Shown: piece by piece, positions 9,894-23,032 of the stretch
Layout: the number at the start of each line of letters is the position of its first letter
Position numbering within the stretch: the first letter of the stretch is position 1
Source of the DNA: Podospora anserina
Lineage: Eukaryota
Assembly: GCA_017654855.1 (NCBI GenBank)
Contig: CM030333.1
Location: 1,860,001 to 1,924,000 of the forward strand
Direction: 5' to 3'
Length of the DNA: 64,000 nt
The notes under the pieces: generated by a model
Seen by the model: the letters and a program-made list of their open reading frames with translations, nothing else
Database searches by the model: none
What the model was told of the DNA's origin: nothing
Program-made: the position numbers and the translations under genes

Positions 9894-10663
9894 GCGGAGG
9901 ATTTGTCACGGATCTGTCTGTTGATACAGGAAGCAAGGCACCGGTAGCATACTAGAAAGTCAAATTTTGGCAATAGATGAACTAGCTGGTTAACCAGATC
10001 GGTGTCCATACTGCGCTATGTATTTGGGGTGGGTGGTATGCTAATTAAGTAGCCGCTATACTTGACAATTTTATAGTATTCAGACGCTGGGACTGGAGCA
10101 ACAATAATGATGTCGGCTCATGCCCGTCGGTGTTCCGTCCAATCATGCTGTGCTACCGACTCATGTTAGCGGCGGTGACACCCGACTACACTCGTTCCCA
10201 GCAACTCTTACCTAGTTCTTCCGTCCAAATTGTATTTTCCCTGAATAACCCGACATATTTGCAAATGCAACCTGGCGCTGATGCTGATGGGTACCATACC
10301 CGCACTTCCCAATGTTACCAGAACTCTTTAGCAGCAAAAAGAAAATAAATAAATAAATGCCCCATGTAACCCCGTACATATTAGTGTTTTCGTCATGGAA
10401 GGAGTCCGTACCCAAGCTCCGCACCGGGCCTCTATCCCGTTTCCAGTTGGTCTTCGACTGTACGTGACTTCGGAGACTTGGCCCTACTCGATGCTCCTGT
10501 CTGCTTCTCGCCCTCCTTGTCAACAGCATCGTCCTCTTGTTCCTCACAAGAGTCAAACTCCATCTCGGGGTCGGAAACTGTCGCCTGAGAGTCCACATAT
10601 GTTTTCTCTTCTGACTCCGGTTCCATGTCTGCATCCTCTTCTGGTTCGTACCCTACAAGGCTT

Positions 10664-11491
10664 CTACCGTTGATGCCCCTCTGCGCCCTGATGACGCTGG
10701 CCCGGAGCTCGGCGTCTGTCGTTTCCTCTGGTTGTTTGTGTAGCCTCGGCGTCAACGTCCATCTCGTCCTCGCTGGAGCTGCCGTCTTTGTCCTCCCAAC
10801 CGTCCTCGCTGTCATACAAGTCCAGATCAAACTCAGTATCGGTCATCAAATCCTCGGGGTACTCCTCCGGCAGAGTCTGGCTCGAACCGACATCAACGTC
10901 TTTAAGCCCCTCGCCAGAGCCATTCTTCCTCCAACACCCAGCCCCTTGATCATAAACCGGAATTGCTACCTATTTGTTAGCCTCTCCCATCGATCAGCAA
11001 ACACCCCCACCCAAGTCAAACTTACTCCGCCCAAACCAAGTACACTTCGAACAAGGCAGATGCGCACAAGTCCTCCAATACATTGACACCGACCTTCTAC
11101 TGCCCCTCTTTTCTTCCTTGCCCCTTTCCTCCGTCCCCCTCGGACCCAAACTCGGACCCAAACTCGCACCCCTCCTCCTAACTGACTCAAACCTCTGCCT
11201 CAGCACAACCTGCCTACAAAAAGTATCCCAATTCGGGCCCTTCTTACAAGAACAACACTTCCAGTACCTCCCCAACCTCTCATAATCCCTACATTCCTCC
11301 TTCGGACACTTCCAGTCCACATTCTGTATCTTCCCGCGTTTCTTGTACACCTTTTCCCCCTCCTTTGACTTGCGGCAGAATTTGCCCAGAGGTTTTTTGG
11401 TGGTCGGGTCGCGGGGGGCGAGAGGACAGAAAACTTTCAGCTTTCCGTGGTGGCCGCATTTTTTGTGGCGGTAGTAGACTTTGTGGCACAT
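10664..11491 (-). CDS. Met-Cys Cys/His-rich protein, cluster member A (intron 11025-10966; acidic tail apparently continues in a shifted frame to 10432)
   Basis: MCHKVYYRHKKCGH...FC...CPKEEC...WKCCSCKKGPNWDTFC...CAHLPCSKC. A GTAAGT...GCTAAC...TAGGTAG intron follows the last Cys, then an Asp/Glu-rich exon 2. Confidence 0.75.
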
Positions 11492-14420
11492 CTTGGGGGG
11501 TTTCTGGGCGGATACCTAGGCTCCGTGAGGTGTGGGAGAGTATTTGCATCTGTTGTTATGATTGTGTCGGTGTGGGGGTGGTCGTGAAAAAGCCGTTCTT
11601 CGTGGGGGGTTGGAAGGGTTGGCAGATGGGAAAAAGAAGAAAAAAGATGTGTTTGAATAAAGAACGAGGGAAGATAAGACACTGTCTTTGGCTTGTGTAT
11701 CCTGCTTAGAAGAAACTGGGTAAGATTGCTGCTTCGGCCCAAGACAAAAATAGCACTGTATATGTTGAAATATCTACTATTCTTGGTGCAAGAGAAGATA
11801 GAGATACCTTTGAGAAATGTGATTGCAAAGAAGAAATTGAGTTCGCAGTTGGAAAGACAATCTCTGCTTTGGCACGCAAGTGAAACCCAATTCATTGCAG
11901 GAACCATCCTTCTGCTGCCCCAACAATGAGGGAAAGAGCGGCCCCGGATGAGGCACCCAGTATCCACCCTCATGGGCGCTAGGGAACGAAAAGTCGGGGT
12001 TGTCCCACGCCATTTACATTCTACTATGGGGTGGATGGATGTTTGGGTCATTGACGCCATGGTCATAATACGTAGCCGCGGTCGAAGCCACCAACTGGTG
12101 GGGATAGGACGTTTTGCCTTGCTCACGTGGATGGATACGAGCGTTGGTTGTTTACTAGCATGGATACTGGTCACGAATTTAGCCCTTTTTCCCTTTTCTC
12201 AACGGTGGAGGCTGTTGCCACTTACATTTACAATTGTCTAGGCAAGAGAGAGAGATCATGGAACATGTCATGAGGGAGGAAGAACAGTTTGATGTCGACG
12301 ACAAAACATGTCCAAGAGATACGATAATAAGATGAAAGAGAAAAGGAAAGGAAAGAAAAGAAAAGAATCATCTGAAAAACAAAGGGCCCTGGCCTGACAC
12401 TGAAAAAGGGAGGCAACCAACTGGCCAGCATCTCCCTGGCCCAGGTCAAGCTTTGTTTGATCTTCCCGTCCTGCTCTTCCCCTTCACTCTCCAACCAGCT
12501 AAGCCATCAATGACATCAACATCATGAATCCAACCCCCGTCTCTCACAGACGGAATCTCGCCAAGCAGTGGCATACCTAGACCATGGTCTGATTTTCAAA
12601 AAGCCTCCTTCCTATCCTGATAAGATCCGCTTAAGCTTTCATGTCCGCCGCCGCAACACCAGGTGGGAGTCAAGGGAGTAGCGTGGTTGATAGTTCCTCC
12701 ACCTCAACACCCCACCACGGGTCGCGTCCACATGTCTGTGTGAAGTGATGGCACAAAGCTGAGCCATGTTGTGCCACGGGACTTTTGGCAACCCCTCTTC
12801 TCCATACGGAATTCAACTGGCGCACGCCATCTGCCGCCTTCCCCGGCACATCAAAAAATCCATGGTAAATATCCCACCTGGAAGCCCACTGTCTCACAGG
12901 GATTGTGATATCCAGTCGGGTTTTTGCCTTCGGAGGAGGAGGTGGCTGGGTTGGGATTCGCTACACTTACGGAGTACTACTTTGTCGTTATCAATCAGTC
13001 ACCCACAACATATGTTGTATGCAGTGTCGATCTCGATAGGGCCAGGGGTGCCCAGCAGCCGATCCCCCTTTAGTGCTGATCATGGATCTTGACGCGGGCT
13101 CTAGTCCCAAACCGGCAAAGTGTGAACCCCACAGAAGCACTGCTTCTGCATTTTCGAAGCACTGGCACTGGCAACCGGAGGTGGCTGTGTTGACTTGAAG
13201 CTTTATGCCTCCCCTCATCGTCAGCACCAACCCCAGCCTGCGAAGGAGCAATCGATGACGTTCATCAACATGATACTTTTTTCCCGCAAAGAGGCTCGAG
13301 ACATTGACGCCTCACAGCCTCAGGAGCGCATGGTTTGGACCATGTCCCTGTCCCTGTCCAAATGGTCGCGACGAGACATCTTCTCCGCCTTTTGCCCGTC
13401 CATCGTACTTTGGTAAATAGTGGCGGTGCACAGCAGGCTCTGCTTCAAACAGGTCTGCACCTGAGCCTTTTTTGCTGCCGTCCCTGTGTCGCGTGTCGCA
13501 TGTCGGATATCTTGCAGGTCTCAGTCGGGGGTTTGGGTTGGTAGGCATATCGAGATTTTTGGCATGCGGAGGCGGAGCTGTCTTGGAGCATGTGTCAACC
13601 CTAGTTCTCCTGAGCCTTGTGCGTGTGAGCAAAACAAGACGATAGAAACCAAATAATCGGATGCTCGGCGAAGTCCTCTTCAGCTGTGGGTAGCTTCGTG
13701 CGAGTATCGGGCCTGGGATTGTCGTTCAAAAATACCCGAGGCGGCGCAAGGTCCCGACCGTTCGGAGCTGTGTGCCGGAGCTGCGGAGCTATACCAGCTG
13801 CTTCTTGGAGCTATCGGGTCCGCGCCGAGACCAACTGCAACTCAACCCGGCGCCCTGATTGGAGCAACCCTTGTCTCAAGAGATCTCCCTCTGCCGATGA
13901 CAAGCTTTTGTTCGCAAATCTGTAAATCGACGTTCCTGACAATACTTCACCCCGTGGACCAGCGCTTGTCTGTCTCAGCTTTGTGTCACGCTTGTCTCGA
14001 GCCCGCTTCCAGCACTGGCCACGTTTTCTGTACAACTCCGTCTACCACAATCCTCCATGAAGCCGGGACTCGTCTTTGCGCACGGGTGGCATAGGCGCCA
14101 CGTGCGTTCACCGGCTGTAAGAAGCGTGCTGCTCGTGGTAGTTGATGACTTGGGGTTGAACAATGCCGTAGATGGCTGCCAATAATTGGGACCCAGACTG
14201 CTGACGCGACAGATTGGGCCCCTCATGGCGGCCATACTTCCTCGTTCTGTTTGGGGCATGTACACCGTCTTGACCTGTTGGTCACTTTCTGGGAATACTG
14301 TTCCACTTGTCAACTCCAATGGCGCGAGAGGTACTCAGCCTCACGGGGTAGGGCATCAAGACGGCAAACTCATGAGCAGTCAACGTCATCCTCACCTATC
14401 GATGCCTCCATCGAGAGTCC

Positions 14421-14427
14421 TATATAA
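14421..14427 (+). promoter_or_regulatory. Probable TATA box for cluster member B
   Basis: TATATAA directly upstream of an 866-nt ATG-free stretch leading to ATG 15326. Confidence 0.5.
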
Positions 14428-15325
14428 GACGCAGGTCGTCCTCCCTGTCGAGGCCGATGTGATCTGCATCAGCATCACCAGCTTCCCAAGTCGCCTTTGT
14501 ATCCTCACTCGCCTCCATCCGCATCGATCCTTCAAACAAACATCATCAACACATCCACCACGAGATCAACGGCGGCCCACCTAAAATTCCCACTTGGGGC
14601 TAGAACCAGTTCGACTCCGCTCATTACCAACCAACTCAGGGCTAGACTGAACTGTTGCCTTCTGAACCTCTCTTCTCTTTGAAGGCTTTGGTAAGATACT
14701 CTGTCAATAGAGATCTAGCGGCCGAGCTTTCTCCAAGTCGGTGGCGGACAACAAGAAACCATATTGACTGAGACCTTGTCTACAGCTTAGGCTCTTTTAC
14801 TTCGAGTTCAACAAAACCCCCTGTGACAACGTGGATATTGACTGGCTGGGCCACCGGCTTCACTCAAGCCTTGAGACAATTGTGCAACCATCAACCACTT
14901 GGGTGCCAATTTAGCAACGAAGATCACAACTTCAGCGAAAACGCCATATCAAAACCGCCTCCGTATCCGCTGCACAGCAAACACAGTATCAGTTCGAATC
15001 TCCACACAATCTCGCCAACAGTCTCCGACTTGTCTCTCAATCCCACAAAGCCAACTTGGCTGACTGAAAGCTCCCTCTGGCGAACGCTGCTTTCCGAGAC
15101 AATTGCCTGATATTCCCTTTCCCAGCAACAAGTCTCAACATTCTGAAACGGGTTTGAAAACGCACACCCGAGATCTCTGTCCAGTTAAACCACTCTCGGC
15201 TCCATTGACTTCAAAGGAAGTTCGGATACGAGATACCAAGTCAGCTCAGGACAGGCGCAGTAAAAACAGGCGCAATCCGTGTTTCGGCATCACCAAACGT
15301 GAAAAACCAGCAAACCACAAACAAG

Positions 15326-15745
15326 ATGTGTACTTACTTCTATCTCCATCACCACCACATGCCACCCTGCACCCGCAACATCGACATGGTGGTACACTAC
15401 AGCTTCTGCCCCAACTCCACCATCGACAGTGCAGGTGCTCAGCAGCCGTGCGACAGCCCGCATTTTGACAACACCCAGAGCGTCGACTACAACGATCCCT
15501 GCGCCTCCGGTGGATGTCTCGTTTCGGCCGACTGCACCTCGGGCGGCTGCCGTCTCGAGCAACTCAACGGCCGTTGGGTATGCTGCCAGTGCAACGGCCG
15601 CGGCAATGAGTATCGCTGGTGTCGCCACCGCATGCGCAGCAGCCCAGATACCTTTTGCTACCACGTTTGCTGTAGTGGGTGCAAGGCCGATAACAAGTCA
15701 TCATCGTCGTCGAGTTCCAGCTCCAAACGCAAGGGTGCCAAGTAG
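15326..15745 (+). CDS. Met-Cys Cys/His-rich protein, cluster member B (139 aa)
   Basis: MCTYFYLHHHHMPPC...FC...CTSGGC...WVCCQCNGRGNEYRWC...CYHVCCSGC, followed by a Ser/Lys tail. Good start context (ACAAGATG) and C-rich third codon positions. Confidence 0.85.
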   Translation: MCTYFYLHHHHMPPCTRNIDMVVHYSFCPNSTIDSAGAQQPCDSPHFDNTQSVDYNDPCASGGCLVSADCTSGGCRLEQLNGRWVCCQCNGRGNEYRWCRHRMRSSPDTFCYHVCCSGCKADNKSSSSSSSSSKRKGAK

Positions 15746-16893
15746 GTCGGTGATAAAACTGAAGGACAGGGGCAAATTAGAACGTTGTCATGACGATATG
15801 AAAAGATGAAAAGATTTGGGTAGCCGAAGGATTTTGGAAGACTGGAAGGAGAGCAGAGGGGAAGCTCAGGTCAACCTTCACAACTCCGGATGAACCTCTG
15901 CGATAAACCCAAAGAGACCTCACCCGGCCCGACTTGACGGTGTCACCGCCGACACCTGTTTCTTCTTTCCGTCCCCTACCCGTTCTTGTTTCTGAAGACC
16001 GCTTGGGAGCGACAAATGGCGGCCGATGGAAATGTTGGGGCACGCGTGACGCGTGGAGGGCCCCGAACGAGGGGCCAATGTGAATGACCGATCATGAGAT
16101 TTGGGCGCTAGGTTTTGACATGATTATTTTTCTTTTCTCTTGATGGATCTCGTATGAGCTGGCCGGCCAGTGTGGACTAACGGCAACTTGGCATCTGTAA
16201 CCATCTCGGTGTTGTCGCGTGTTGATAGGCGAAGGTGCCCTAAACCCACCCACCCTTGAGACTTCAACCGGCCAGTGCTGTAGGGAACTTCTCAACACCC
16301 CTTCGGCAAGATTTGTGTATCTTTATCTTTCTTCGTGTAACAATAGCGGGCCGGATTTCCCCTTGAGGAAGGCCCAAGTTAGTGACTGCGATCAAGCGAT
16401 GAGGCTTTTGGTGTTTCACAGATCCTGCTGGTATTCTCGCTCGCGTTGGTTGCCCGAACCGACAGGTGAAGCTGCTTGATTCGATGGAGAAGAGATAGAT
16501 TGAAACCAGGAAAATTGCTTGGTCAGATCTGTTGACCCAACTGGTCAGTTCAATCCTCTAGTTCCATGCGGTATCCAAACGAGCTTCCGGTTTCTGCAGC
16601 CATGCTGCTGGCATCGAGGGTGGGTGGCCCGTTTGGAAGGCCACCCCCACCCTAATGACCACAGGTATTGACATCTTGCTTAAATATTGAATGATAATAG
16701 TGACTGATTAGTATGCCAAAAGGGCCGGCCGTCCTGGGTGACTTCTTTGCCATGGAGTCCTACACCCGGTCCAGAGGCATCAACACAACGCATAGACAAA
16801 CGGGAGGCTACCAGAGAAGTCGTTCGGAATGAAAACCAGATTCAGTAACTTTGGAAGAAACGATACAATGACTAGTTTCGTTTCGAAGAACGC

Positions 16894-16899
16894 TATAAA
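16894..16899 (+). promoter_or_regulatory. Probable TATA box for cluster member C
   Basis: TATAAA about 90 nt upstream of the putative 5'UTR intron 16985-17067. Confidence 0.4.
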
Positions 16900-17166
16900 G
16901 AAGATGGAGAGCGTCCACCGCTTGGTGGTTGAAATAACGAGGAGTATGGCGTGAGCGTCCTCTGATAAGCAAGCAGCAGCCCTGGTAAGAGAAGTTGACA
17001 CCCCTGAAGCACTCTTTCGGTGCCTGGGATGCATTCTGTGGCCTCGAATATGGCACTAACGATCCAGGTCTCAAGCCGAATTCAAAAAGGAGCGATCCAC
17101 AAGCCCCCTCCCCTCCCCAGCAGACACGACTCCAGACTCGACGACGTAGGGATCCGCGGCTGCGAA

Positions 17167-17688
17167 ATGTGTCATCAGGTAGCCTATGCCTTGCCGTGTG
17201 AGCACGTCAAGACGCAGATAGTCTACTGTGCCAATGCAATCCTCGAAAATAGTGCCGATGAGGGTGAAGTCCAGGGCAGCTCTGCGGCCCGATCTTCCTC
17301 GTCATCCGCAAAGCCGAAACACAAGACAAAGCCAGTTTCTGAGCCCTCGAGGTCCGATAGGAAGAACCAAGGCTCGGGGTCGCCGAAAGCCATGTCGTAC
17401 AAGCAACCCTGCGCCAACTTGACAATCCAGTCCTTGCCATACCCGATGCCGCCGTCTTTCGCAGAAAACCCCGACTTCTTCACGTCATCCCTGCCATCCC
17501 CCAACTGCCCACTGTCTGATTGCCCATTCGGAATGAAAGGTCGGTGTTGGACCTGTTGTTGGTGCGGGAAAGGCGAGAATAGAACTGGACGTTGTGGGTG
17601 CGTGATGCTTGTCGAGGGGAATATGTTGCGATGTGAACACTTGTGTTGTAACGAGTGTGAACCGACTAGCATAAGAGACAGTGTGTAG
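17167..17688 (+). CDS. Met-Cys Cys/His-rich protein, cluster member C (173 aa)
   Basis: MCHQVAYALPCEH...YC...CPLSDC...WTCCWCGKGENRTGRC...CEHLCCNEC. The upstream in-frame ATGs lie inside a predicted 5'UTR intron. Confidence 0.82.
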   Translation: MCHQVAYALPCEHVKTQIVYCANAILENSADEGEVQGSSAARSSSSSAKPKHKTKPVSEPSRSDRKNQGSGSPKAMSYKQPCANLTIQSLPYPMPPSFAENPDFFTSSLPSPNCPLSDCPFGMKGRCWTCCWCGKGENRTGRCGCVMLVEGNMLRCEHLCCNECEPTSIRDSV

Positions 17689-19479
17689 GACTGAGCAGGG
17701 AATCTGCATCAGGAAACCGGCGAGGCTTTCCTCATGTCTATGGATTCGTTGGATCGGGATAAAATGGTACGATGTGTGCATGGTAACGACAGCAGATTCC
17801 CTCCTTGCTTCCCAGCCGGCTTCTCATGAAATAGCAGGTGACCCATGTCTCTCGCGTCATGTATTCCAGTTCAGCCCGTTTTTTCCGAGGAGACGGGTAT
17901 CGAGAGGGCGTCTTCCGACCTGGCCAGGGAAGGGTCTAGGGGATATTTGAAACAAACCCAACTGTTTGTAACGTTGCTTTCCTGCCAGATCCTTTCAGCC
18001 GTTGAAAAGCCTATGTGTTGAACATGTCAACGACTCAACCTTGACTTGACGCAATCGTGGTTCAAGCGTGACAGACATCCGGATTCCGATCGAACACCTT
18101 GCAGCTGATGGCTTCGTGAAAACTTGCAACCGGAAGATATTGCCCTCTCTGGCACAGATCAGATCAACGTGGCGCGCGGCCTCGGATCAGGCATGATGCA
18201 CATGGACGATAGTCTCGTCTCATCACTTGCCCGCCATAAGCACTTCTCGAAGATCTAGGGACTTTGGTAAGCGTCTACGCTGCATGCGCGGAATCATGAA
18301 ATCTCTCCGCTGCAAGACATGGCTGGTTGGGAGATGCCTCCCACGACGCTTCCCACCCACAATGTAACTGTGATGACGCTGCAGATAATGCCAGGCTGCC
18401 AATGACACAATCTAACAGGCTGACCGATGAGTTAAATTTCGATAAAGATCGGAAACAGGACGTGTGATGTTCACGCCTAGCTGCAACCATGCGCTATGCG
18501 TGTAATGTGCAGCTTGCACTATCCAGGGCATCCAGAAATTGGCCGGGGGGGGAGGGCAGTAACAGGCAGAGTGTGATCGATAACCCAGCTGGACCCCTAT
18601 GAATTCTCGATGACCAAGGTTGTGCGAAAAATGAAGAACTGCGTTGAAATCTCGAAGAGATCGAACCTTTGACCCCATATTCGGAATGCAATGGCAAAGT
18701 GCCTGGCAACGTACAATCGATTACCGGGAGCCTGGTCGTTGGGTCAGATCGGGCAGCCGGGGGCAGGGGTTTCAGCAAACACTGTGCAACGGTAGACGTT
18801 GGTTGTTGTTCTGATTGGTTGGTAGCCCTGTACGAAGAAAGCAAGGCGAAGCGCCGCAACCTCACATCTCCGAAGACAGGCCCGAGACGAAATAGAACGC
18901 TACAGGCTGGACAGATCACGGATGATTGTCAGGCTCCCTGTGGGTGAATTCGTATCGGGAATGGGAGTTCTGAAGGTAATTCGAGGAGACAGCTGGCCAC
19001 CACACAGTCTTCTTTTCTTTTTTCCAGAACAAGGAGGGTGTCATGCTCACGATCGCGACACCCTCATGAGGCGTCAGGACTTTCAAAGCCAGATCGTGGT
19101 GGCGGTCTCGCAGTGCAGAATCATTTGTATGACTGGAAGTCACAAGGAAGGCGGCCAATAGATGGGCCTTGTCGAGTATCCTGAAGAACTAAACAGTTTC
19201 GAGATGGTGTCCATGACAATCTGGGGGGTGCCGAAGGTCTTCGGGAAAGGGAAAGGTATAAGATGACGGATACCGACATCTCTTCCTCATGAGTGTAGGC
19301 GTACACAAACCGAGATTTGTATCCTGAGTGACCACCTGTCAGCCTAGACACAACATCTCGTGGGCACGGGACAGAGCGGCTCAGTCGAAGACACACCTTT
19401 CACACTCAACTCCCTCTCAAGCCCTCTCTTGATTTGGAATCTCAAAGCACCTCTCGTGCTCCCACGCCCAATATCCACC

Positions 19480-20120
19480 ATGTGCCACGGACATCCGCAT
19501 ATCCACGGCTGTGGCCACCAATCCATGACTTGGCATTACTGCCCGTCAGCCCTGATCGACCTTGAGACGGGGTACGAGACAGCGTGCTCCAATGTCACCT
19601 TTGCTGCTCCCCAGCCATCCAATGCCGCCTGTGTGCTGATCAATTGCGATTACCGCAGTGGGGGCACAGGGTGGACGTGCTGCAACTGCGGAGGGCGTAA
19701 CACGAGCGGGTGGTGCAAGAACATGTCGCCCAATCCCAAATGGGAGAAGAACACGATCACCAACGAATGGGAATGGATCGAGACCTGTGACCACGGGTGT
19801 TGTCGGAATTGTGCCAAAGACTGTACGTCCTGACCCCCTCCTGATAACCCCCCCGGATTCCACTGTTCCATGGCCAAGCCCCAGGTGTGGTTCCTGACAC
19901 GCACCCAGCCTCGAGCAACTACGGCGAGCCCAGCCGCAAAGACGGGAAGAGAAGTAAAGATTCTCGAAAACACCGCCACCGAACACAAGGAGAAGCCGGG
20001 TCTTCTTCGGCAGCTGATCCCATGGCCTCGTACAACATCACGCTGGACTACAGCAGCAAAGAGTCGAGGGGATTGTCCCGGAAAGAGGGAAAGTCGTCCT
20101 CGGGGCACAAGAAGAAATAG
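19480..20120 (+). CDS. Met-Cys Cys/His-rich protein, cluster member D (2 exons, intron 19823-19908; 184 aa)
   Basis: MCHGHPHIHGCGH...YC...CVLINC...WTCCNCGGRNTSGWC...CDHGCCRNC, with a CCACCATG start context. A GTACGT...CTGAC...CAG intron joins in frame to a basic Ser/Lys/Arg tail ending GHKKK. Confidence 0.85.
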
Positions 20121-23032
20121 GCGAAGATCCATGGCGAAAAGCGGAAGGCAAAAGGCGAAAGGCGAGTGTTGAATTCCTGTACCATGTGTTTATAAGAACA
20201 TGTATATTTGTACCATAGCAACTTGGGCTCCCAACGGGCCCAAGCACGGCGGTGTTTTTTAGAGCATTTTCATGGCACATAGCTAGGCATGGGAAACAGG
20301 ATAGGGACAGGAAGCAGAAAAAGATCAAGGGCTTACATGATGGAGCATGGAGTTTGGCGGTGACCTGCACAGAAACGAGGCGGGATTAGTGTGTTCGTTC
20401 TTGGCTTGCTGTTTTGGAGTTTTGAATTAATCGGGGGCCGGTTCCTTTGTGCGTTGGGGCGGCCGGCAAAGCCTGACGGAGGTCGAATCATCGATAAAAG
20501 GCTGAGGTGGAGATATAATGAACGAAGAGATGACTTGATTCTTGGTGACTCATGTGTTTGTTCCAATGGCTCGTGATTACTGTTGGTGACTCTGAAAACA
20601 GTTGGCTGGCTCATGCCAGTAAAAGATGGCCGGTCAGGTGTAGGTAAGATTTGAAGAAGGAGCGGTCTGCCATCTGTTGATATATGGGCAGGAGCGAGTG
20701 GTGGGTAATAAAAGACCGAGGGAAGGACCTCTGGAGGGTCTGGGTCCCGTCTGGATGAGCTTAGGTGGGCGGGCAGCTGAGAAGGCATTCCAAGATGGGT
20801 GGTATATAATGCGTACTATACAGCCGACGGTTTTCGGCATGTTGTGCTTCGTGTGCAACTGGAAATAGAACGGTGAACACCCACAATCTAGCTACCAAGA
20901 TCGAACCAACCCTGTCTCGGGTCAGGCATCCCTGCATGGGCATGGGGCGACTTGTGGCACATTGCTCTGAGGTTGTGAATCGACGTCGCCGAAGAGATCG
21001 GTGTTGAGTACCGTCATTTCACTGTGATGCCATGGGAAATAAGCCGACTTTATGGACGAGCTTGTGGCGGGTGTGGTTAACGACTGGCCACGGAAGGGTC
21101 TAGATTTGCTCGGCCAGCTGCATACCTACCTGAGCCAACCAGCTTTAACGGGATTGGGTCCGATGTTCATGATAGGGAATGAAGCTGTCTCAAAACATGG
21201 CGCCACCGACAACATCGTATGTCTACATTTTTGATCAGATCGCAACCTAGCAGTGATGAGAGCTGGGCATTCAGATCAGGACCGTCAGGTGCCCTAGGCA
21301 AGCTCACTTCGTTCCAAGACACCTACCTGCCCGTCACCTATCACATCTTGATCTGTACCTATCTGTACAACCGGAACCATTCCGTTACACCACATTGCCG
21401 TCGGTGATTGAAGAAGATTCTTTGCATTTGCTTTGTTCGACTGCGTCAGGTCCATGGAACCGATGTTGAGTATGGCTGGCGGAGGTGGTCATGTGACGAA
21501 CCATGTCCTTTCTGTATTGTCTGCATATATCTACTCCTTATAACACCAGTGTCGGGTGCCATAGTATAGCAGCCTAATGTCTCTCGTCAGTACCATCAGT
21601 CTCGATGTGGTGTGCTTGTCTTGGGACATGTGGAACAGGGTGACATGACAGACACCTAGTGACTGAGCTGCCTTGTCCTCCCTCTTGTGCCATGGAAAAG
21701 TGATGGCTAGTTTTGACCCCTGGTGAGCTATTTTGTGGTGTGAGGTTGCCGTCGGTCTCGGCGGAAGGTTGACTCTTTGTCTGTGTGACGGCGTACCAAC
21801 GGGTAGCACCCAATGCCACGTGCCAACCATCGGTTGATTGCAGCCGATGACGGCAAGGCAATCGGAGAGCCGTTATCTCTCTGCCCTTTGTTCGGACGCG
21901 GACGCATGCGATTCAAACTGTCAGATTGGCATCTGGTGCTTTGACCCGAGCCCAACGACGGTTGTGTAAACCATGGTGCCACGCGGCGAAAGCCGCCAGG
22001 TCCTTCGGAGCAACTTGTCTGATATTAAAACGTCCGGCACTGGCCCCGTGTGGAGTCTTGACCCTGAGCAATACCTACTTACTGTGTACCACCATAAGGT
22101 ATTGTGCAGTGCACTGTTGCGGCACAATTGCAGGCCTGTACAGATGATACGGAGTATTTAAATATCAGGTTTATATCGATACTGATATCTTGGACCTATT
22201 CGTACCATTGAGCAATTGTTTGGTCAAGCTGAGTACGGACTTGTGGGGACGGGCATTTGTGATTGGTGTCGCATGGGTGCCCCATCACCCAAAAGGCCTG
22301 GACCTCTGCTCTGAACAGAGGCGCTGATCATGCTTTGCACGTGTGGTGTCTTTGACGGCAGCCAGAACGGGCCACCTGGACCCGACAGGCAGGTTCCTTT
22401 GTCCGTTCTTCACCGTCTTGATCATCTCAAAGAGCTTCAGCACGTGGTTCTGAGGATGCCGTGGTTGAGATGATTCTTTCATGGCATGGGAAGAAGGAGT
22501 GGGTGGAAGTGAGGATCGGCCCCTGGCCCACAGCCCACCCCGACAAGGCAAGGGTGATGGTTGGAGGGCGCGGAGCGAAGCTGCAAGTGCGCGGGCCACC
22601 CACCTACGAGCCACATGGTTACCCGGCACTGTAGAAGTTCAGAGGTGCCTCCCGTTTCACCATTTCCTTCAAGTTCCCCTTTCCTGATTCTCTGCCCGGC
22701 CTGGCCCGTTTCTGCTTTTAGTGCCTCTCTGTCTCTGCCTCACTTAACCAAACCACTTTCCACCTCCATCATCCCAAGTGACAAAACCACCAACCAAACA
22801 CCAGACTTTGCACCATCGACTCCCTCCACGTCCTTAGTGCCCGCCTTGGTCACTGTTGCAACACGCCGCCACTGAAATACCGATCGGCATTTCCCACCAC
22901 CGCTCTTTGTCCTTTTTCGTCTTTGTCGGCGTTTCACCTTGCGACAAGGGCTCCAGCAAAAAAACAATTGCCCCGGGGTTCTATTTTCGCCTTATCGCCA
23001 GCATGTCCCTCGACTCGGCCAGTCGTCCCATC

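Follow-up and report, generated by a model that had tools for sequence, protein, structure and literature searches.

Four diverged Cys/His-rich paralogues of Podospora anserina belong to a Sordariomycete family of putative zinc-stabilised binding modules

Introduction

A 64-kb stretch of the Podospora anserina genome (GenBank assembly GCA_017654855.1, contig CM030333.1, positions 1,860,001 to 1,924,000 of the forward strand; hereafter the window, numbered from its first nucleotide) carries four small adjacent genes, here named A (minus strand), B, C and D (plus strand), whose deduced proteins share a Met-Cys start and an array of Cys and His residues. An interpretation of the DNA letters alone, the original prediction, had regarded them as an undescribed metal-binding system of co-regulated or complex-forming proteins. 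This raises the question of what kind of protein these genes encode, and whether their proximity reflects a joint function. Our analysis supports a more conservative answer: A to D are probably anciently diverged paralogues of a Sordariomycete family of zinc-stabilised binding modules, tandem-duplicated within a syntenic block.

Results

Four genes with one Cys/His scaffold under purifying selection

Program-made translations of the open reading frames (ORFs) confirmed the four genes at the predicted places. Exon 1 of A (11026-11491, minus strand) encodes the complete Cys/His domain, from the Met-Cys start through C-A-H-L-P-C-S-K-C. Gene B is a single exon of 139 amino acids (aa) at 15326-15745, C encodes 173 aa at 17167-17688, and exon 1 of D (19480-19822) comprises a complete, putatively four-site Cys/His domain, all three on the plus strand. 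When the six-frame translation of the whole 64-kb window was searched with a hidden Markov model (HMM) of the family, these four genes were the only matches (D, E 1.4e-44; B, 9.6e-40; C, 5.6e-36; A, 4.5e-26) and the next best hit had an E value of 0.39, so that chance ORFs were rejected as an explanation. Transcript evidence came from contigs of four sequencing runs of four studies (runs X1, X4, X11 and X12 are cited below), which we regard as RNA because the contigs carry canonical spliced joints. Splicing was seen for A and D, while B and C are covered by contigs of the same runs.

Pairwise identity among A to D is only 26-34%, and the columns that are invariant in their alignment are M1, C2, C12, C22, C-x4-C, W-x-C-C-x-C, N, C and C-x-H-x2-C-x2-C. 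The predicted scaffold spacings are exact in A, C and D, while B has a variant N-terminal module (MCTYFYLHHHH..C-T-R) in which C-x12-C-T-R carries Arg in place of His. B furthermore has two extra Cys residues and a Ser-rich, basic tail, and in C the linker between the N- and C-terminal modules is long and rich in Ser and Lys. Across the HMM alignment of 282 sequences, Cys was kept at positions 11 (260 sequences), 21 (264), 36 (273), 51 (281) and 56 (281). In the C-terminal module the counts were 279 for W65, 278 each for C67 and C68, 279 for C70, 269 each for N74 and C79, 267 each for C103 and H105, 265 for C108 and 264 for C111. His occupies position 13 in 186 of the 282 sequences and Arg, the B-type residue, in 67, and position 107 is Cys in 219.

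The beginning of the domain is even more strictly defined. C2 is aligned in 254 of the 282 sequences and is preceded by Met in every one of them (254/254). This Met-Cys pair forms residues 1-2 in 187 proteins, and in the other 67 the gene call has been extended upstream of it, whereas the stretch C-terminal to the last Cys varies in length between 0 and 297 aa (median 19). Since Met precedes the first Cys throughout, the aligned sequences suggest that the Cys/His domain always stands at the N-terminus of the protein. A to D lack signal peptides and transmembrane segments, as had been predicted: their maximal 19-residue Kyte-Doolittle means are 0.14-0.90, and averages of -1.06 to +0.29 over residues 1-20 show N-termini that are hydrophilic or close to neutral. 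The proteins thus look intracellular, in agreement with the earlier interpretation.

Purifying selection on the family genes is clear. For D, four comparisons with the window allowed an estimate of dS and gave ratios of nonsynonymous to synonymous substitution rates (dN/dS) of 0.07-0.19, and one pair of metagenomic D genes showed 0 nonsynonymous changes at a dS of 0.35. For B the ratio was 0.13-0.22, and for C the proportion of nonsynonymous differences (pN) was 0.33-0.38 as compared to 0.81-0.84 for synonymous ones (pS), with synonymous sites saturated.

An old Sordariomycete family without database description

Among 1.84 billion representatives, a profile of A to D retrieved 211 clusters with E values up to 1e-3, 116 of them at E<=1e-10. 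Every organism named among the family members belongs to a Sordariomycete genus, the placement of four species having been checked in the taxonomy. We take the orders represented to be the Sordariales, Coniochaetales, Diaporthales, Glomerellales, Hypocreales, Ophiostomatales, Magnaporthales and Xylariales. The precomputed annotation of the family matches contained no Pfam domain. Pfam scans at E<=10 gave no family for B, C and D and only BHD_1 for A (E 3.9, 7.9 bits as compared to a cut-off of 27), which is chance level. The idea of an undescribed family is supported in that no Pfam family reaches its gathering threshold for A to D and, weak sub-threshold RING matches aside, none recurs in 150 members. 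In the ESM Atlas only clusters of "hypothetical protein" were found, with scores up to 0.84, below lead level. Word searches of the literature for such a family in Sordariomycetes yielded nothing relevant, and no paper was found that mentions Pa_2_4140 to Pa_2_4190. The family is without database description and biochemically uncharacterised.

The family tree was calculated with FastTree from 189 rows filtered to below 80% identity and 115 columns, and many of its forks are unresolved. B-type proteins form one clade of 60 rows with a support of 99, and 32 of the 33 C-type rows form a main set with a support of 95. No single clade unites the 92 D-type rows (four changes on the tree), and only four rows are of the A type. 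A to D are old, as their low mutual identity and the well-supported B clade imply, and the view that they are old paralogues rather than young duplicates is borne out. As a separate observation, the D cluster at 90% identity includes a 124-aa protein of Podospora pseudocomata (P0261, QC762_0096250), encoded on another contig than QC762_204180. Possibly it represents a second, nearly identical copy, something that would not be expected in a fungus with repeat-induced point mutation.

The Fusarium orthologue of D is asy-1

Database records of FGSG_02102 of Fusarium graminearum (P0042) describe a hypothetical or uncharacterized protein. This protein aligns with 97% of D at 55% identity (E 3.2e-31) and shares the Met-Cys start, the scaffold and the tail motif described below. 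The 80% redundancy filter excluded P0042 from the tree, and a Fusarium protein that is 57% identical to D (P0034) was classed as D-type among the tree rows. In the accessible text of Trail et al. 2017 (PMC5509106), FGSG_02102 is named asy-1, and its knock-out is described as producing asynchronous perithecia with otherwise normal maturation, a phenotype that co-segregates with the marker. As far as this text is accessible, the paper deals with the knock-out phenotype and an expression-based ranking, and not with a domain, metals, paralogues or a gene cluster. It was the only paper in our literature search that mentions FGSG_02102 or the orthologue it lists for Neurospora crassa, NCU07748. The candidate undescribed status originally proposed needs correction for D, since the available portion of that paper names its orthologue and describes the phenotype of a knock-out. 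No Fusarium protein was present among the 71 matches of the profile search with A, B and C, which is weak, word-based evidence, although the D type does occur there.

A predicted multi-site domain with a split NZF-like ribbon

AlphaFold2 predicted the D domain with confidence (alignment of 150 rows; mean predicted local distance difference test score, pLDDT, 92.0; predicted template modelling score, pTM, 0.70) as a fold of beta hairpins in which residues 2-8 form a beta strand. The model of B, based on 41 rows, reached a pLDDT of 86.8 and a pTM of 0.66. Foldseek found no structure in the PDB at E<=0.001, with best E values of 2.6 for D and 2.9 for B, and the sole match of the sequence profile in the PDB was RNF4 (E 1.9). 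An exhaustive VIA-align comparison with 48,161 representative chains gave eight chains at a Z score of at least 2 for the D model and none at Z 5. Three of the eight were RanBP2/NZF fingers aligned to residues 61-116, namely the NZF of TAB2 (Z 2.5, root-mean-square deviation (rmsd) 1.2 A over 28 of 30 residues), RBM5 (Z 2.1) and the NZF-N of Vps36 (Z 2.1), all being weak matches. Among the ten chains matched by the B model were again Vps36 NZF-N (Z 2.2) and the TAB2 NZF (Z 2.1, rmsd 1.6 A), the remainder being integrase C-terminal domains and zinc ribbons.

The matched region corresponds to a RanBP2/NZF-like ribbon that VIA-align and the consensus place at residues 61-111 of D (19660-19812, plus strand; W-x-C-C-x-C-x3-N ... 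C-x2-C). The RanBP2 consensus is W-x-C-x(2,4)-C-x3-N-x6-C-x2-C in the accessible part of the source (PMC7154859). Its first half is matched in D by W65-T-C67-C-N-C70-G-G-R-N74, whose Trp and Asn almost all family members share. The TAB2 NZF (7e62) superposes on residues 61-109 of D, the other matching fingers being Vps36 NZF-N (2j9u) and RBM5 (2lk1). The original prediction had found the scaffold unlike the RING, PHD, LIM, Zn2Cys6, hydrophobin and CFEM spacings. A precedent exists for the core, which follows the W-x-C-x2-C-x3-N pattern of RanBP2/NZF proteins and superposes, if weakly, on NZF fingers. In contrast to these compact 30-residue fingers, the ribbon of the family is fused into a multi-site domain of about 115 residues. 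In D, N-x4-C79 leads into a hairpin insert that separates the two knuckles. C79 and C103-x-H105 lie on this insert, and C79, C103 and H105 would be additional ligands. The models weakly suggest a split NZF-like ribbon within a larger new domain, and in them the N-terminal half of the core is without recognisable counterpart and no solved structure matches the whole domain.

A second resemblance concerns the RING finger of the C3HC4 type, since C67, C70, C103, H105, C108 and C111 take the spacing of its ligands 1 to 6. However, a conserved C-x2-C that could provide ligands 7 and 8 is missing after C111, the Pfam matches to RING are all below cut-off, and no RING chain was found at a Z score of at least 2; of Pirh2 the C-terminal zinc domain was matched and its RING was not.

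Judged from the aligned sequences, the core of about 115 residues has 16 conserved Cys/His positions, enough for about four tetrahedral zinc sites. The multi-zinc character proposed earlier is in keeping with this, as sixteen such positions would fit several tetrahedral metal sites. We infer that the A to D family binds zinc because its members contain C-x-H and C-x2-C knuckles as well as the NZF-like ribbon, look intracellular and have a confidently predicted fold, and also because the predicted fold offers no hydrophobic core elements besides the hairpins. By analogy to other RanBP2/NZF ribbons, the core may serve as a binding module.

Several observations weigh against this interpretation. 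The five B models spread widely, with pLDDT values from 40.9 to 86.8, all structural matches are weak (Z 2.0-2.5) and count as tied, and for the B model the NZF fingers score no better than other zinc ribbons and the C-terminal domains of integrases. The second half of the RanBP2 consensus, N-x6-C-x2-C, is not kept in D, where N74 is followed by C108-x2-C111 only about 33 residues on, and zf-RanBP (PF00641) was matched neither in 150 members at E<=1 nor in A to D at E<=10. Ubiquitin-binding NZFs use a T-F dipeptide, which is replaced by G-G or G-x-G in the family. The sole recurrent sub-threshold Pfam signal is instead RING, with zf-C3HC4 in 9 of 150 members (best E 0.0021). The number and composition of the metal sites are themselves conjectural, and the even Cys count would also allow disulfides. 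Finally, the phenotype of asy-1 is mild, and the knock-out of its N. crassa orthologue NCU07748 equals the wild type, as given in the accessible text of PMC5509106.

Conserved neighbourhood without indication of a four-gene system

The original prediction drew its main conclusion from the adjacency of A to D, namely that a co-regulated metal-binding system or hetero-complex is kept together by joint function. Metagenomic contigs were scanned with an alignment of 13 D-type sequences, and each of the resulting 34 loci was scanned with the family HMM. Seventeen loci extend 3 kb or more upstream of D, and in 10 of them a B gene precedes D on the same strand (L002, L007, L009, L013, L014, L019, L021, L022, L028 and L031). 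As L007/L009 and L013/L014 look like duplicates, these represent eight distinct B-D loci. A C gene was found in one of the 17 loci, and neither B nor C near D in seven (L004, L006, L011, L012, L018, L020 and L033). Among all 34 loci C occurs twice, in the short locus L024 and in L031, where B-C-D have the order and strand of the window even though its D is only 49% identical to D of the window. A was detected in none of the 34 loci, including ten with at least 8 kb upstream of D. In L002 (3-1073), L007 (4754-5637) and L009 (5909-6792) the B gene upstream of D is split over three frames, which reflects either introns that are absent from B of the window or decaying copies.

In named genomes, where adjacency was judged by consecutive accessions or locus tags, A, B and D are consecutive in Triangularia setosa with one number free for C, and D, C and B are consecutive in Cercophora samala. 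B and D adjoin in Thermothelomyces thermophilus, Thermothielavioides terrestris and Madurella fahalii, and two family genes with one gene between them were found in Mycothermus thermophilus. The adjacency of B and D, with or without C, is thus old, and A and C are often absent. The view of an old family kept together needs qualification, as the cluster of four was found only in the Podosporaceae (Triangularia setosa).

The genes surrounding the family members are equally informative. Upstream, the window contains an ARMT1-like gene (PF01937, E 6e-61), which verifies the ARMT1/DUF89 neighbour named in the original prediction, and downstream a gene for a TPR protein. The ARMT1-like gene and the downstream gene also flank B and D in L007, L009 and L013, without A or C, while in L014 only the ARMT1 side of the flank was seen. 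Since these unrelated flanking genes are just as syntenic, the B-D adjacency looks like ordinary conserved synteny and needs no functional cause.

The recurrent adjacency of B and D, on the same strand in 10 of 17 metagenomic loci and by consecutive numbers in three named species, the order B-C-D in L031 and A-B-(C)-D in Triangularia setosa, and the divergent orientation of A and B with their long leaders would all fit a functional unit. Yet D stands alone in 7 of 17 loci, C and A are rare or missing in the 34 loci, the Fusarium matches were of the D type only (with the weakness of that word-based search), and in the accessible text on asy-1 D alone gives a phenotype in Fusarium. Moreover, in run X1 the contig depth of D differs more than 100-fold from that of its neighbours, depth being a poor measure of expression, and no convincing common upstream motif was found. 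The 8-mer CAACCAAC is present upstream of all four genes, but 4 of 200 block shuffles yielded at least one such 8-mer and its sites fall within CA-rich leaders, for which reasons we do not consider it convincing. A complex prediction with the cores of D and B, in which their own alignments were unused, scored 0.04 as compared to a mark of 0.34 and speaks neither for nor against binding. Altogether, we consider a co-regulated system or hetero-complex unlikely.

Alternative roles of the Cys-rich core

A Cys-rich protein family may also act without any macromolecular partner, as a metallothionein-like buffer, store or chaperone that holds or passes on zinc or copper. Cys makes up 13% of the 117-residue ORF of D (15/117, one of them from read-through into the intron), the N-termini of D (MCHGHPHIH) and B (HHHH) are rich in His, and contigs of D were very deep in one RNA run (25,000 as compared to 78-210, with the caveat on depth given above). 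Metallothioneins are low-complexity Cys clusters with few aromatic residues. A to D, however, have a confidently predicted hairpin-rich fold, an invariant Trp and Asn and spacings that are fixed class-wide, and on these grounds we rejected the metallothionein reading. The tails and the conserved tail motif, which indicate roles in partner binding or localisation, and the sole known phenotype, one of developmental timing in the accessible text on asy-1, likewise speak against it. We rate it as quite improbable.

The Met-Cys rule invites a different explanation, in which an exposed N-terminal Cys acts as a switch, be it as metal ligand via the free amine, as conditional N-degron or as redox sensor. 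Methionine aminopeptidase removes Met before Cys, and in plants and animals a Cys at the N-terminus serves as a degron whose action depends on oxygen. The presence of Met before the first Cys in all 254 aligned sequences, together with the lack of any native N-terminal extension or fusion in proteins whose C-terminal tails vary from 0 to 297 aa, is compatible with such a role. But an N-terminal Cys degron is not known to be established in fungi, and the rule may simply reflect the domain-edge strand formed by residues 2-8 in a young family without N-terminal fusions. An N-terminal Cys switch therefore appears doubtful to us, and the same low probability applies to its corollary, a protein whose stability would depend on zinc, redox or oxygen conditions and thereby signal them.

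The boldest combination of these ideas would be a new, obligately N-terminal fold with four metals, arranged around a split NZF-like ribbon, and a functional free Cys that serves as metal ligand or conditional degron, whose members act as metal, redox or oxygen switches, and in which B, C and D jointly time fruiting-body development. It is a long shot, and if true it would mean that B, C and D have stood side by side since early Sordariomycete evolution. Least credible of all is unconventional export as disulfide-rich effector-like or cell-wall proteins, which the many conserved Cys residues of small proteins confined to one lineage might suggest but which we rejected in view of the missing signal peptides and transmembrane segments, the conserved C-x-H pairs and zinc-ribbon signature, the long charged tails of nuclear or cytosolic type and the occurrence of the family in saprotrophs and pathogens alike.

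Gene models and transcripts of the locus

In gene D, exon 1 is followed by an 86-nucleotide (nt) GT..AG intron (19823-19908), the joint being present in all four runs, and by exon 2 (19909-20120, stop codon 20118-20120), which encodes a basic tail rich in Ser, Lys and Arg that ends in KKK and whose end is confirmed by spliced RNA. The protein is 98% identical to QC761_204180, a 184-aa model of P. bellae-mahoneyi. Amid the otherwise variable tail, the motif Y-N-I-T-L-D-Y-S (20031-20054, plus strand) is conserved, with the equivalent Y-K-[IL]-D-[LM]-E-Y-T at the same place in Fusarium. Concordantly, tblastx conservation within the tail covers 20014-20079 in the metagenomic loci L001, L003 and L006 and 20014-20064 in L002. 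In run X1 the D contigs (19372-20419) had a mean depth of 25,000, adjoining contigs 78-210. D may thus be very strongly expressed in some condition, although depth is a poor measure of expression. The loose end of these contigs at 20419 reads AGATCGGAAGAGC..., which we take to be an Illumina adapter.

In gene A, the start at 11491 on the minus strand was correctly predicted, whereas the proposed end at 10432 lies in another frame and would need a splice that the RNA does not show. Exon 1 is joined (10965/11026, in runs X1 and X4, two of four) across a 60-nt GT..AG intron (10966-11025) to exon 2 (10664-10965), which according to the colinear RNA encodes an acidic tail and ends with the stop codon at 10664-10666 (ORF 10664-10846). 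Contigs are colinear with the window down to 10212, from 10965 in X1 and X4 and from 10953 in X11, with no gap and no letter differing from the window. A tblastn search with the 478-aa orthologue of Triangularia setosa (P0151) matched 11491-10757 in frame -1 and then 10737-10441 in frame -2 (E 5e-18), the latter out-of-frame continuation of the tail (10441-10737, minus strand) corresponding to residues 331-445. As the alignment with the orthologue switches frame here, a frameshift near 10737-10757 is indicated in A of the window, and the agreement of three RNA assemblies with the window indicates that it is real in Podospora anserina. A search for longer proteins with A as query gave 183 candidates, none of them significant; it also missed the known T. 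setosa orthologue and therefore says little.

Gene B is covered by an RNA contig from 14935 to 16166, and its 5' leader contains a GT..AG intron (14690-14784, plus strand; joint in X11 and X12), after which the remaining 541 nt (14785-15325) contain no ATG. In run X4 only, minus-strand joints were observed just 3' of the B stop codon (15758 to 15876 and 15758 to 15924), which may belong to an antisense or intergenic transcript. Gene C is likewise supported by its ORF, the family alignment and RNA contigs that cover the gene. An in-frame upstream ATG at 17029 (17029-17166) lengthens some automatic models to 216-219 aa. In the 90% identity cluster of C, however, five of six named NCBI models have 173 aa (four Podospora species and P. 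comata), that of Cercophora samala having 204 aa. Based on these five models and the family-wide Met-Cys rule we favour the start at 17167.

The interval between A and B had been thought to hold no other gene. No conserved ORF was indeed found there, but the spliced RNAs at 11701-11806 and 12167-12225 on the minus strand and at 14690-14784 on the plus strand qualify this view. The minus-strand introns (CT..AC) lie upstream of the ATG of A, with the joint 12166/12226 in all four runs and the joint 11700/11807 in one. Either A has a long 5' leader that is spliced here, or the introns belong to a non-coding RNA of its own. A 209-aa ORF at these introns has no Pfam match, and the stretch is without a convincing ORF. 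Downstream of A, about 450 nt after its stop codon, a further minus-strand intron of 59 nt (10153-10211) was observed in contigs that reach 9825 and 9800 and thereby overlap the 3' end of the convergent ARMT1-like gene. It belongs either to the 3' untranslated region of A or to an antisense RNA.

Discussion

We asked what the four Cys/His-rich genes of the window encode and why they are neighbours. In our favoured explanation, the zinc-stabilised core would be a rigid binding module for protein or nucleic acid, like other RanBP2/NZF ribbons, and the variable tails, acidic in A and basic and Ser-rich in B and D, would give each paralogue its localisation or partner specificity. The sequences of the charged tails and the conserved tail motif of D suggest such paralogue-specific partners or localisation. 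The D lineage, represented by asy-1, may influence the timing of perithecial development, and by extension D may have a part in sexual development in Podospora. The neighbourhood itself would have arisen from an old tandem duplication inside a conserved syntenic block, and nothing points to an obligate four-part machine.

The locus thus does not appear to hold a new kind of system, but zinc-ribbon-type binding proteins that would be neighbours through tandem duplication, their strict Met-Cys start being the most unusual feature. The family spans a fungal class that includes the model Podospora and crop pathogens of the genera Fusarium, Verticillium and Gaeumannomyces. It has no Pfam entry and no solved relative, and its confidently predicted fold is unmatched as a whole, which recommends it for structural work and as a new domain entry. 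Furthermore, through the family link to asy-1 a protein that is recorded only as hypothetical or uncharacterized acquires a developmental phenotype. This also raises the possibility that paralogues act redundantly and thereby mask stronger phenotypes where B, C and A are present as well.

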